From: a virus | Reading direction: 5' to 3' (one strand) | Virus record (IMG/VR): IMGVR_UViG_3300037804_000367 | Span: 64,787 to 128,786 of that record | Length of the DNA stretch: 64,000 nt | Part shown: positions 18,913-39,370 of the stretch, piece after piece | Position numbering within the stretch: the first letter of the stretch is position 1 | Layout: each line of letters begins with the position of its first letter | Translations under genes and position numbers: made by a program | The notes under the pieces: model-generated | What the model saw: the letters and a program-made list of their open reading frames with translations, nothing else | The model's database searches: none | What the model was told of the DNA's origin: nothing

Positions 18913-18985
18913 TGCCCAGTGTGGGGATCGAACCCACGTCTCAAGGATTTAGAATCCAGCGCAATAACCGCTATACTAACTGAGC
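18913..18985 (-). tRNA. amber suppressor tRNA (anticodon CUA)
   Basis: 7-bp acceptor GCTCAGT/ACTGGGC, D-loop GG, loop TT-CTA-AA closed by GGA/TCC (two upper mismatches), T arm GTGGG-TTCGATC-CCCAC; no encoded CCA. Confidence 0.85.
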
Positions 18986-29036: not shown

Positions 29037-29084
29037 ATGCTACATCAAGTTATTAAAGTAGAAAAGATAAGTGAGACGTTATAA
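29037..29084 (+). other. 15-codon mini-ORF MLHQVIKVEKISETL overlapping the next start (TAATG)
   Basis: Starts ATGCTACAT, like the next gene ATGCTGCAC. Confidence 0.35.
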
Positions 29085-30517
29085 TGCTGCACCACATTTT
29101 TAATATACCCATACCCAGACCCTTCTGGACTCCTGCTGAAATAACCTCAGAAGCTTGGTTCGATGCAGATGACCCTCTAAGCATTACAGAGTCTGCTAAT
29201 AGAATAAGTCAATGGAATGATAAGTCTGGTAATAATAGACACGCTACCCAACCAACCGGCAGTATACAGCCAGACTACGTAGCCTCTGATCCTGTATTTA
29301 CAGGAAGAGCTACTGTGAAGGCAAGTACAGGAGGGGCTTATCTGGACACGGTTTCTAGTTTCTCGGTGAAGCGAGTATATCTAGTTGTATACTATGATGA
29401 TACTTCCTTACTATTCGGTAATCATAATGCAATTTTCGCTGGCTCCGTTGGTAGCAATTCTAGACTAACAGGTAGAAGTAACGAGGATAAGGTATGGGAT
29501 GGGCCTAGAGACAATAAAAACTTTGACAAAGACGGGATAACGCTAAGGAACGGAAGTAGGGTAGATAGTACCGCAGAAGCAAACGGATTGCCTATGCCGG
29601 GTGACATATTCAACATAACCGCCTTAGTTACTAAGACTCAAACTTTCCGCCTAATGGGTAATTCTGCAAGTTACACAACATGGCCAGGAGGCTTAGGTGA
29701 GATTATATTCACCGATGGGACTGAAGGCATTGAAACACAGCAGAAGATGGAAGGCTACCTCGCTTGGAAATGGGGACTAGTTACCAAACTTCCTATAGAT
29801 CATCCTTACCGTTTCGATGGAACATTATTCGGACATGGAATTCTTTGGAATCCTGCCCTTCTTACTACTGAACTCTGGCTCGATGCAGCGTCCCAGGGTA
29901 CCATCACTGAAGCAGCGGGAGCTGTGAGCCAGTGGGACGATAAATCCGGTAACGATAATCATGTCACTCAAAACACAGGCGCTGACCAACCATCATTGGT
30001 TTCGGGTGCTATAAATGGAATTAATGCAGTTAATTTTATAGACAGAAATGACTACATGGACGGTAGTATACCTCTTGATGCCAAGTGGGTCGTAGTGTTA
30101 TTGCAATACAACGGCACTCCTACCTTTAGTCAAGCGTTAGGTAGTCAAACTTCTACTGGCGGAGAGAACTACACTATCCAGTATCGAGGAGATTTAGCTG
30201 CTGACAGATGGCAAAACTCTTATTATACTAACGGTAACTCCATTAGTAATGTTGGAGCCGATGTGAATGTAAACCCGACTATTGTTGTTCGTGATGGGAT
30301 GAACTTGGTAGGCCTAGACCTACAGGTTGGTGGAGACCGTGGAATTAACGGTCGAGGATGGGATGGATACCTAGGTGAGGTTATCTACGGTAATCAGACT
30401 CTCGATACAGCCACAAGACAACTACTAGAAGGCTACCTCGCATGGAAGTGGGGCACAGTAGCTTCATTAGATGCAAGTCATCCTTATAAAACAGACGGAA
30501 GTCTCTTCGGATACTAA
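29084..30517 (+). CDS. receptor-binding/fibre tip protein with two tandem lectin-like domains
   Basis: Duplicated W.PA..T.E.W.DA...SQW.DKSGN ... EGYLAWKWG...HPY..DG.LFG units. Confidence 0.75.
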   Translation: MLHHIFNIPIPRPFWTPAEITSEAWFDADDPLSITESANRISQWNDKSGNNRHATQPTGSIQPDYVASDPVFTGRATVKASTGGAYLDTVSSFSVKRVYLVVYYDDTSLLFGNHNAIFAGSVGSNSRLTGRSNEDKVWDGPRDNKNFDKDGITLRNGSRVDSTAEANGLPMPGDIFNITALVTKTQTFRLMGNSASYTTWPGGLGEIIFTDGTEGIETQQKMEGYLAWKWGLVTKLPIDHPYRFDGTLFGHGILWNPALLTTELWLDAASQGTITEAAGAVSQWDDKSGNDNHVTQNTGADQPSLVSGAINGINAVNFIDRNDYMDGSIPLDAKWVVVLLQYNGTPTFSQALGSQTSTGGENYTIQYRGDLAADRWQNSYYTNGNSISNVGADVNVNPTIVVRDGMNLVGLDLQVGGDRGINGRGWDGYLGEVIYGNQTLDTATRQLLEGYLAWKWGTVASLDASHPYKTDGSLFGY

Positions 30518-36908: not shown

Positions 36909-37349
36909 TTATTCCTCTAGTTTATCAATAAAAAGTATTCCGTCCAAGTGGTCGATCTCATGTTGGACACATCTAGCTTCCAATCCTGAAAGCTTCAGAG
37001 ATTTTACTTCGCCGTGACCATCAAAGAATCCCACTTCAATATGAGCAGTTCTCTTTACTTTGCCAACAACTCTTCCCACTGAAAGACATCCTTCAGAGTC
37101 AATGATCGTCTCATTAGATTCCCAGTTGAGAGTTGGATTAATCATTGGGACTACTCTTTTTCCAATTGTGACAATAGCAACTCTTTTGCTAACACCAATC
37201 TGAGGAGCAGCTAATCCAATCCCACGATCCTTTCTCATAAGAACGGTCATATCAATTATCAACTTACGAAGTGAACTGTCAAATACTTCAACTGGTTCAG
37301 CAATCTGACGAAGCTTTTTGTTGGTCTTGCTTAGGATTTTATATTTCAT
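36909..37349 (-). CDS. def: peptide deformylase
   Basis: GIGLAAPQIG, EGCLS, QHEIDHL. Confidence 0.97.
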   Translation of the reverse strand: MKYKILSKTNKKLRQIAEPVEVFDSSLRKLIIDMTVLMRKDRGIGLAAPQIGVSKRVAIVTIGKRVVPMINPTLNWESNETIIDSEGCLSVGRVVGKVKRTAHIEVGFFDGHGEVKSLKLSGLEARCVQHEIDHLDGILFIDKLEE

Positions 37350-37627
37350 TATTTTGTCTCTACTATATCATATTCATGGAACTGCCAAGTACGAATAACA
37401 CCACCAGCAACTTTCCAAACATCACGTGATACTTTACTGATGATAGTGAAACGTCCCCAACGTGGATTGTTACGGTTCTCAATTACTAGGCCTTCGCGAA
37501 CGTTTTCATAAGTTAGTTCAATATTCATATGATATTCCTTTTTGTTTTCGTTTACCATACTATTAATATACACCCTTAAACAAAGAAGTCCACTCCAAAA
37601 TGAACTTATTTTCACTTTATTTTGCAA
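37349..37627 (-). CDS. hypothetical protein (true start probably MNIELT near 37528)
   Basis: ORF-track 5' part spans the promoter. Confidence 0.6.
   Translation of the reverse strand: MQNKVKISSFWSGLLCLRVYINSMVNENKKEYHMNIELTYENVREGLVIENRNNPRWGRFTIISKVSRDVWKVAGGVIRTWQFHEYDIVETK
37552..37593 (-). promoter_or_regulatory. sigma70-type early promoter (TGGACT variant)
   Basis: TGGACT...AAGGGTGTATATTAATAGTATGGTAA. Confidence 0.7.
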
Positions 37628-38228
37628 CTATTTCTTTTACTCGATCGTCAATGTTTTTATCAAAAAGATTAAATTCAATATAATCTCCTTCCATCCAGTT
37701 TTGCAATACAACAATTTCACAAAGTGTTTTAACTTTATCGAATTTAAAAGCACCACAGTCTTCGTCCTGTCTGTTAATATATGCTTGGTAAAGTGGATAT
37801 GCTTGTAAGGCATACTTTGAAGCATAACTTCTTTTTCCAGACAGAGTGTAGTCACTAACATTACATCTACGATCACATATTTTAATAACAATTGATTCCA
37901 TACTCTTTTCTTTAAACGATTCAAGGAACTGATACTTTTGTAGCTTTGACTCGTGTCCGGTTGTACGTGAACATTCAAGAACAATATCAGCAATTCGTTT
38001 GTTAAAAGCTGTTTCTAAAATTACATGCTTCTCTGAATATGAAAGATGAAGTAAGCAATCTTCAATATAGTCATGAAGGATAGCAGCGCACCAAACATCT
38101 TGGTCGTCAGTAAGCAAACAAACCTTTTTAAGAACTTCTGTCAGGTGAACAAAGTATGGAATCTTAAACGACTTCCTGTATTGTCCTTGGTGAGCTTCTA
38201 GTGCAAATGAAAATGCTTTATCAATCAT
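37617..38228 (-). CDS. HD-domain (p)ppGpp hydrolase-like protein (SpoT/Mesh1 type)
   Basis: AHQGQYRK...PYFVHL.EV...AAILHDYIED...IKICDRRCN. Confidence 0.85.
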   Translation of the reverse strand: MIDKAFSFALEAHQGQYRKSFKIPYFVHLTEVLKKVCLLTDDQDVWCAAILHDYIEDCLLHLSYSEKHVILETAFNKRIADIVLECSRTTGHESKLQKYQFLESFKEKSMESIVIKICDRRCNVSDYTLSGKRSYASKYALQAYPLYQAYINRQDEDCGAFKFDKVKTLCEIVVLQNWMEGDYIEFNLFDKNIDDRVKEIVAK

Positions 38229-38948: not shown

Positions 38949-38970
38949 TTGAATCCTTTTTATTATTAAA

Positions 38971-39331
38971 TGGAGGTGGGGAGAATCGAACTCCCGTCTT
39001 GATAAATACTACACAAAAACTTCTACATGTTTAGTCTATGTTTTATACTTTAAGAATCTCAAATGTCAAACATTGACAAACCTAAATGAGATAATGGTTA
39101 ATTAAATTTCAGTCAAAGATATTATAGCCATCAATCTTATCCCTACCTGTGATTGATAAACGCCTCAAAATGTTATCACGATATACATTTCTTTTGACGG
39201 ATTGCTTCTGTGAGCAATCAACTTTGCTGTTAGGCTGCAGTTATATTTTGAATAGATATTTTAACAGGCCAACTATTCATCCTGTACATGCGGTCTTAGT
39301 TCATATCTCCAATCGATGCCTGAGCACCCCC
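38971..39331 (-). ncRNA. ssrA: tmRNA
   Basis: 5' GGGGGTG pairs with 3' CACCTCC-A with G3.U70; T arm GGGAG-TTCGATT-CTCCC; pk1 ACAGG/CCTGT and GAATAG/CTATTC; resume codon GCA 11 nt after pk1. Confidence 0.93.
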
Positions 39332-39370
39332 GAATATATTATACTCTTTATTTACATTTACTTTTAAAGC

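Follow-up and report, generated by a model that had tools for sequence, protein, structure and literature searches.

Natural tmRNAs that encode only two alanines before the stop codon were described in 2025, when an update of the tmRNA database reported 25 bacterial tmRNAs with Ala-Ala tags, e.g. that of Fermentibacter daniensis, and accepted them as tmRNAs (PMC11915505). A 2021 review gives the natural tag range as 8-35 residues and assigns to the 3' part of the E. coli tag frame a role in the recruitment of RNase R (PMC8012679). In phages, full-length tmRNAs are known from the mycobacteriophage Bxz1 group, from Bacillus phage G and from the huge phages of Al-Shayeb et al. 2020 (PMC4131195, PMC7162821), and a CDS-less RNA of mycobacteriophage DS6A that consists only of the tRNA-like domain inhibits the host tmRNA (PMC4131195). 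Minimal tags have also been made in the laboratory. The E. coli SsrA-STOP mutant of Withey and Friedman, which stops after the resume codon, allows plating of lambda-immP22 with an EOP of 0.9, and an H. pylori SsrA-STOP with an Ala-Val tag is viable in a bacterium in which trans-translation is essential (PMC2862035). The latter does not complement the growth defect of E. coli (PMC2862035), so that minimal tags are not always fully functional. Finally, the RqcH/RqcP poly-Ala tails of B. subtilis are ClpXP degrons according to the secondary accounts in PMC8138137 and PMC8373112.

The DNA analysed here (the window, 64,000 nucleotides) makes up the second half of an IMG/VR virus record of 128.8 kb with a CheckV completeness of 38%. 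The same phage is found in at least four assemblies, and the length of the longest (257 kb), a virion structural protein of phrog_10356 and 30 tRNA genes together mark it as a jumbo phage. Among cultured phages its nearest relatives, cyanophages and other aquatic phages, are distant, with protein identities of 25-40%. Genes for SmpB, a Clp ATPase, ClpP or a release factor (RF-1 domain) were not found in the 128.8-kb fragment, a result that is uninformative for the genome as a whole since the fragment represents 38% of it. A homologue of the window virion structural protein (29084-30517) in Pseudanabaena phage Pam2 (ON014754.1, 57616-58323) is labelled ‘botulinum neurotoxin type A’, very probably an artefact of annotation; the records of other homologues call them virion structural or hypothetical proteins.

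Window positions 38971-39331 on the minus strand are a full-length one-piece tmRNA, as a sequence-only reading of the window had proposed. The match to Rfam family RF00023 (window 38968-39331, minus strand, model positions 1-374, 105.6 bits, E 3e-40) spans the full model and exceeds the gathering threshold of 47 bits. The RNA (WIN; RNA position p is 39332 minus the window coordinate) was compared throughout with its nearest relative, the tmRNA of L045, a 133-kb phage-like contig with small co-oriented genes. The features of the locus are as follows.

38971..39331, minus strand: tmRNA gene, mature RNA of 361 nt without CCA (full-length Rfam RF00023 match and pairing compared with L045)
39325..39331, minus strand: 5' strand of the acceptor stem, GGGGGUG, pairing with 38972-38978 (CACCUCC)
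38971..38995, minus strand: T-arm GGGAG-UUCGAUU-CUCCC, 3' acceptor strand and discriminator A
39249..39285, minus strand: pk1, stems ACAGG/CCUGU and UGAAUAG/CUAUUCA, 12 pairs, all kept in L045
39239..39249, minus strand: A-rich single-stranded spacer AAAAUAUAACU, 10-11 nt, read directly
39230..39238, minus strand: tag frame GCA GCC UAA (Ala-Ala-stop) at the Rfam resume position, identical in L045
39200..39219, minus strand: helix 5, GAUUGCU-cacaga-AGCAAUC, 7 pairs, 5 of them compensatory against L045 (helix 7 of the comparison)
39161..39199, minus strand: pk2 region with the conserved blocks CCGUCAAAA and UUUUGAGGCGUUUAU, invariant runs against L045
32978..34042, minus strand: phage CCA-adding enzyme (tRNA nucleotidyltransferase; Pfam PolyA_pol head domain, E 3.9e-31, and RNA-binding domain)
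39338..39367, minus strand: candidate sigma-70-like promoter TTAAAA-18-TATAAT (consensus match, 10/12)

The tRNA-like domain comprises a 7-bp acceptor stem in which all seven pairs form, a T-arm of 5 pairs (3 compensatory against L045, helix 12) and a discriminator A at 38971, and it has no anticodon arm. G3:U70, the alanine identity pair, is present, with a G:U at position 3 of WIN and L045 alike. Helix 2, which joins the tRNA-like and the mRNA-like parts, has 20 pairs (8 compensatory), and in pk1 (helices 5 and 6 of the comparison) 5 pairs are changed on both sides and 1 more on one side. Helix 5 starts 19 nt past the resume codon, the canonical tmRNA geometry. Further downstream the nested stems of the pk2 region (helices 8 and 9) and one later hairpin are kept, with a low Rfam posterior across pk2-pk4; CCGUCAAAA and UUUUGAGGCGUUUAU are the second and third longest invariant runs shared with L045. 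The gene ends in CCUCCA|UUUAAU and does not encode the CCA, as is also the case for the three tRNAs of the window, so that CCA addition after transcription is required; the gene for the CCA-adding enzyme lies about 5 kb away. At the other end the promoter-like site, the top score in the region, ends 7 nt 5' of the first G of the tmRNA, a suitable spacing for a promoter. Genes for a peptide deformylase (36909-37349) and an HD_4 hydrolase (37617-38228) also lie close to the tmRNA and the CCA-adding enzyme.

The central question is where the tag frame begins. In the Rfam alignment the resume consensus AAAAAAUAAuUGCa falls on window UAACUGCA with the highest posterior probability, which places the resume codon at the GCA beginning at 39238; the sequence-only reading, which had called for precisely this alignment, was exact in both the coordinates (39238-39230) and the reading of GCA GCC TAA. 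In the context UAACU|GCA, positions -5 and -4 relative to the resume codon are U and A, and in E. coli the frame is set mainly by A86 (-4) and to a minor degree by U85 (-5) (PMC2481249). In the E. coli sequence GGUUGGCCUCGUAAAAAGCCGC-AAAAAAUAGUC-GCA, taken from a primer in PMC2481249, pk1, spacer and resume codon follow one another in the same layout and with the same spacer length as in the window tmRNA, which bears out a further point of the earlier reading. Among 18 canonical bacterial tmRNAs, with unambiguous tags that include ANSNNELALAA and DENNFALAA, the resume codon lies 11-13 nt past pk1 and follows AUAA(A/C)(U/C); one of them (L030, tag DENNFALAA) has the spacer UAUAAAC and thus shares the UAUAA motif with the window. 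A structural pattern of the tmRNA 5' end followed by Ala-Ala-stop has a single match in the window and none in 100 shuffles.

Two codons before the UAA are far from the roughly 8-35 codons of accepted tags, although the Ala-Ala end is present. Under the standard code, which fits the genome, 85% is coding and other codes hardly raise this value; 64% of the stop codons are TAA, the most frequent stop. No ochre-suppressor tRNA is found among the phage's 30 tRNAs and none of them is able to read UAA; recoding of TAG or of another stop was considered and rejected, given the fit of the standard code, the prevalence of TAA and the inability of a CUA anticodon to read UAA. These data support a tag encoded as Ala-Ala-stop, and rescued proteins would end in (A)AA. 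Because helix 5 lies 19 nt from the resume codon, as in canonical tmRNAs, the frame was probably shortened by substitution and not by deletion. By analogy with E. coli, the link to RNase R may be weakened in such an RNA.

Three side observations concern the tRNAs and the tag. The window carries an amber-suppressor tRNA with a CUA anticodon (18913-18985, minus strand; ARAGORN label ‘Pyl’; Rfam tRNA 52.6 bits), and despite this tRNA TAG is the stop of only about 14% of the ORFs; perhaps it is used by a subset of genes, or is directed against the host. A 27-tRNA array that lies outside the window, in the genome's first half, includes a tRNA-like gene to which ARAGORN gives an undetermined two-base ‘anticodon’ (cg; C1:31787-31856, minus strand). 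In the RNAalifold prediction for WIN and L045 the tag GCAGCCUA is paired with UAGGUU.GY in the pk4 region (A1 columns 94-101 with 248-256, i.e. window 39238-39231 with 39084-39076). All positions of this predicted pairing are invariant or changed on one side only, and the pairing could mask the resume codon or be due to chance.

The comparison with L045 shows that the structure is maintained. The two tmRNAs are 59-66% identical, depending on the aligner, and their contigs have three weakly similar proteins in common (25-36% identity, one in a PHROG family). The L045 tmRNA likewise ends without CCA, followed by a hairpin and T-run terminator. With an explicit structure including pk1, all 73 tested pairs form in both RNAs, and 26/73 carry compensatory changes on both sides as opposed to 0-2 in six slid controls; pk1 and helix 5, the elements that flank the tag, are among those with such changes. 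Since pairs are kept through compensatory changes the RNA is under selection, and the data support purifying selection on an RNA that is not a decayed copy. Between pk1 and helix 5, the 16-nt UAUAACU-GCA-GCC-UAA is the longest run without change in the alignment (at 59% identity), read with the proviso that L045, like the further homologue L044, was found with a pattern demanding Ala-Ala-stop, so that both tags are partly ascertained. Given the same tag module in L045 and strong structural selection on both RNAs, the early stop is old and not a recent lesion, and the short tag predates the split between the WIN and L045 lineages.

Tag-independent searches for further members of this clade, by two pk2-based IMG/VR scans, through the neighbours of the window tmRNA and through the neighbours of the L045 QueC gene, returned none. 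The two proteins flanking the window tmRNA have only self-homologues, and the QueC neighbours of L045 (P0003-P0006) were rejected as a guide, showing no synteny for the tmRNA. At 1.6 kb upstream of the L045 tmRNA lies a gene for a ClpA/ClpC-type double AAA+ unfoldase of 751 aa (L045:4765-7020, minus strand; domains Clp_N, AAA, AAA_lid_9, AAA_2 and ClpB_D2-small), with genes for QueC and a YqeY-like protein nearby. Just downstream of QueC a non-coding stretch of about 190 nt is conserved between L045 (3340-3530, minus strand) and a second, related contig, L050 (1130-1330, plus strand), with common blocks that include UGUUGGUAAGCAGCUAAC and GUAAUGCUGUGAAGAGAGAC. A Rfam scan of the L045 copy gave no family, and the stretch may be an undescribed structured RNA.

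How widespread such tags are was addressed in several collections. In IMG/VR, the pattern of a tmRNA 5' end, a gap and UAR-NN-GCN-GCN-URA yielded 16 real tmRNAs, and in the 14 standard one-piece tmRNAs read among these (12 distinct) the tags have 8-12 residues and AA ends, e.g. ANNNRLVAA, DEPLLMAA and GENQLMAA. A tighter pattern applied to metagenome contigs returned six real tmRNAs, four of them distinct. One of the four is L045. L043 (recovered again as L046 and L047) lies on a bacterial-looking contig, scores 161.7 bits, encodes its CCA and reads AAAACAAUAAAC GCC GCU UAA; L042 reads AAUAAUAAAC GCU GCA UAA. The phage-like L044, located in a tRNA array, reads AUAACU GCU GCA UGA UAA, again Ala-Ala-stop with synonymous changes, and its pk1 is largely missing. 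Ala-Ala-stop stands at the Rfam resume position in L045, L042 and L043 as in the window. The sequence-only reading had suggested a survey of phage tmRNAs for ultra-short tags: this added L045 and perhaps L044 on the phage side, while the 14 IMG/VR tmRNAs keep tags of ordinary length. No close relative was found in IMG/VR by the exact tag 20-mer, the 5'-end pattern or the two tag-independent pk2 patterns (one hit of the scans, L004, was discarded as a chance match), and GenBank phages contain no similar tmRNA, only T-arm-sized matches.

A tree built from 35 tmRNAs groups WIN with L045 as sisters (support 94/70), and L044 branches next (90/90); L042 and L043 are placed elsewhere, which suggests more than one origin of Ala-Ala tags. 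The 3' features of the tmRNA offer no host clue when compared with the 18 canonical tmRNAs, which come from many phyla and are 56-61% identical. In the same material, near-identical tmRNAs (L025, L034, L035; branch lengths 0.001-0.03) occur in MAGs labelled Opitutales, Verrucomicrobia and Dehalococcoidia, and at least the Dehalococcoidia bin probably contains a mis-binned contig. Viral contigs of the collection also carry, near tmRNA genes and in tRNA arrays, a ROOL RNA (258 bits, L017:3002-3596, minus strand) and a GOLLD RNA (179 bits, L021:2617-3064, plus strand), and a third viral contig has a type-P5 twister ribozyme near its tmRNA gene (L009:6080-6134, minus strand). With default settings ARAGORN does not report WIN, L042, L045 or even L043 with its 161.7 bits, and it gives a longer tag for L044. 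This is the tool behind most phage tmRNA surveys, the huge-phage study included (PMC7162821); ARAGORN-based surveys probably under-count tmRNAs with Ala-Ala tags.

The best explanation of these results is a tmRNA with the shortest natural tag known. We consider it probable that the window RNA is an ordinary trans-translation tmRNA that adds (A)AA, stops at the UAA and keeps rescue while dropping almost the whole degradation signal. From the anatomy we infer the following course, from expression and charging through SmpB use and rescue to the fate of the tagged protein. Transcription would be driven by the tmRNA's own promoter, and the CCA end would be added afterwards, probably by the phage's CCA-adding enzyme. 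Charging with alanine would proceed through G3:U70, and entry into stalled ribosomes would be assisted by SmpB, which on the evidence of the fragment would come from the host. The nascent chain would be transferred to the alanine of the tmRNA, and the ribosome would resume on GCA, pass to GCC and reach UAA. Normal release and recycling would free a protein with a C-terminal Ala-Ala-Ala. As the adaptor- and protease-binding part of the ssrA tag is absent, at most a weak, Ala-tail-like degron would be left. That a ribosome can be released with a minimal tag, a premise of the earlier reading, has experimental precedent in the SsrA-STOP mutants (PMC2862035).

A first alternative holds that the RNA is a phage counter-measure, which out-competes the host tmRNA and rescues ribosomes without marking unfinished phage proteins for ClpXP, ClpAP or Lon, or which retargets these proteins to an unfoldase of the phage's choice. 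It corresponds to the adaptive inference of the sequence-only reading, in which the short tag might spare phage proteins, serve as a bare Ala-tail degron or let the RNA compete with host tmRNA for SmpB. This adds a purpose and leaves the mechanism proposed above uncontradicted. The Ala-Ala module is present in two, perhaps three, divergent phage-like contigs, the ClpA/ClpC-type unfoldase near the L045 tmRNA hints at a phage partner, the window tmRNA is grouped with peptide deformylase, HD hydrolase and CCA-adding enzyme genes, and tag-less phage tmRNA forms are known, among them the inhibitory DS6A RNA (PMC4131195). However, cellular tmRNAs of bacteria carry the Ala-Ala tag too (PMC11915505; L043), so that no phage-specific reason is needed and the phage may have inherited the tag from a host. 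All 14 other sampled phage tmRNAs (12 distinct) keep normal degradation tags, and the 128.8-kb fragment has no Clp, ClpP or smpB gene. We therefore regard the counter-measure as possible but unlikely. Its extension to a whole lineage of giant aquatic phages, which would have fixed the Ala-Ala tag as an infection strategy that uncouples rescue from host proteolysis, or in which the Ala tail would be read by a phage Clp-type unfoldase such as the one near the L045 tmRNA, is about as unlikely or slightly more so.

Far less credible is an RNA whose coding function is dead or irrelevant, be it a decoy for SmpB, EF-Tu or the ribosome, or a captured host gene in decay. Such an RNA would account for a tag frame far under the accepted 8-35 residues (PMC8012679) and for a score of 105.6 bits below the 130-216 bits of bacterial tmRNAs, and tag-less phage tmRNAs do exist. 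Yet the score lies within the 75-164 bits of phage tmRNAs with normal tags, and pk1, resume spacer, helix 5 and pk2, which a decoy would not need, are kept across about 40% divergence, through covariation or as invariant blocks. No other stretch of the RNA is as conserved as the resume/tag block, and the spacing from resume codon to helix 5 (19 nt) is canonical.

A longer tag through resumption elsewhere, be it AUU CAA AAU AUA ACU GCA GCC UAA (IQNITAA), GLLKYLFKI or a -1/+1 frame, deserves hardly any credence. In WIN no stop closes the Ala-Ala frame upstream through pk1, UAUAA in the spacer contains two overlapping UA motifs, and ARAGORN proposes GKPKITAA, 8 residues in frame, for L044 and, at an 80% threshold, GLLKYLFKI for WIN, but the alternative starts lie inside pk1 stems with 5 compensatory pairs, where selection acts on pairing and not on coding, the upstream in-frame stretch of L045 is broken by a TAA and a 1-nt indel, the spacer UAUAAAC precedes the unambiguous DENNFALAA in L030, the -1/+1 frames of WIN and L045 differ in length and have no tag-like end, and the Rfam posterior is maximal at the proposed resume codon. 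GLLKYLFKI itself, inside pk1 and flagged ‘Tag not identified’ by ARAGORN, was rejected as a tag. The earlier reading had named resumption at another position as the result that would overturn it, and both the pk1 covariation and the conservation of the resume module speak against that outcome.

We thus return to an ordinary tmRNA with a two-alanine tag and to its place among the described systems. The observation made in the sequence-only reading is confirmed and its interpretation is supported in part; the novelty it implied was too high in view of the 25 bacterial tmRNAs published in 2025 (PMC11915505), which show that the feature is not confined to phages. The window tmRNA is a phage member of this recently described class, conserved in at least one divergent relative; it appears to be the first example found in a phage rather than a new kind of system. 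Nothing is overturned by it, as bacteria with the short tag were reported in 2025 and rescue by minimal-tag mutants was already known. Natural two-alanine tmRNAs separate the two jobs of trans-translation, the freeing of the ribosome and the destruction of the product, and a phage copy is a tractable way to ask which of the two counts during infection.

The closest systems are the bacterial Ala-Ala tmRNAs (PMC11915505), to which L043 found here belongs. Like the window RNA they are one-piece molecules with the full domain set and have GCN GCN stop where canonical tmRNAs resume; in contrast, they are cellular and encode the CCA, whereas the window tmRNA is phage-borne and does not. The window tmRNA and L043 are about 56% identical and sit on separate branches of the tree, which points to an independent origin of the window's Ala-Ala tag, with L043 taken as the representative of the bacterial type. 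With the tmRNAs of the Bxz1 group, phage G and the huge phages the window tmRNA shares the overall architecture and the location on a large phage with many tRNAs and translation genes; it differs from the sampled IMG/VR phage tmRNAs, with their 8-12-residue tags, in the stop past two codons. The SsrA-STOP mutants have a comparable early stop, and in those mutants rescue is kept and the degradation tag lost, but they are laboratory constructs with one coded residue, whereas the window tmRNA encodes two alanines, naturally, and conserved in a relative. The DS6A RNA is likewise a phage tmRNA derivative without a normal degradation tag. It holds little beyond the tRNA-like domain, while the window RNA has pk1, resume site, stop, helix 5 and the later pseudoknot region and, with 361 nt and an mRNA-like domain, is no RNA of the DS6A type (about 65-80 nt, no mRNA-like domain). 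RqcH tails, in the secondary accounts cited above, resemble the predicted window product as a short C-terminal alanine run; they are untemplated, of variable length and made on the split 50S subunit, whereas the window tail would be templated, made on the 70S ribosome and predicted to be exactly three alanines long.
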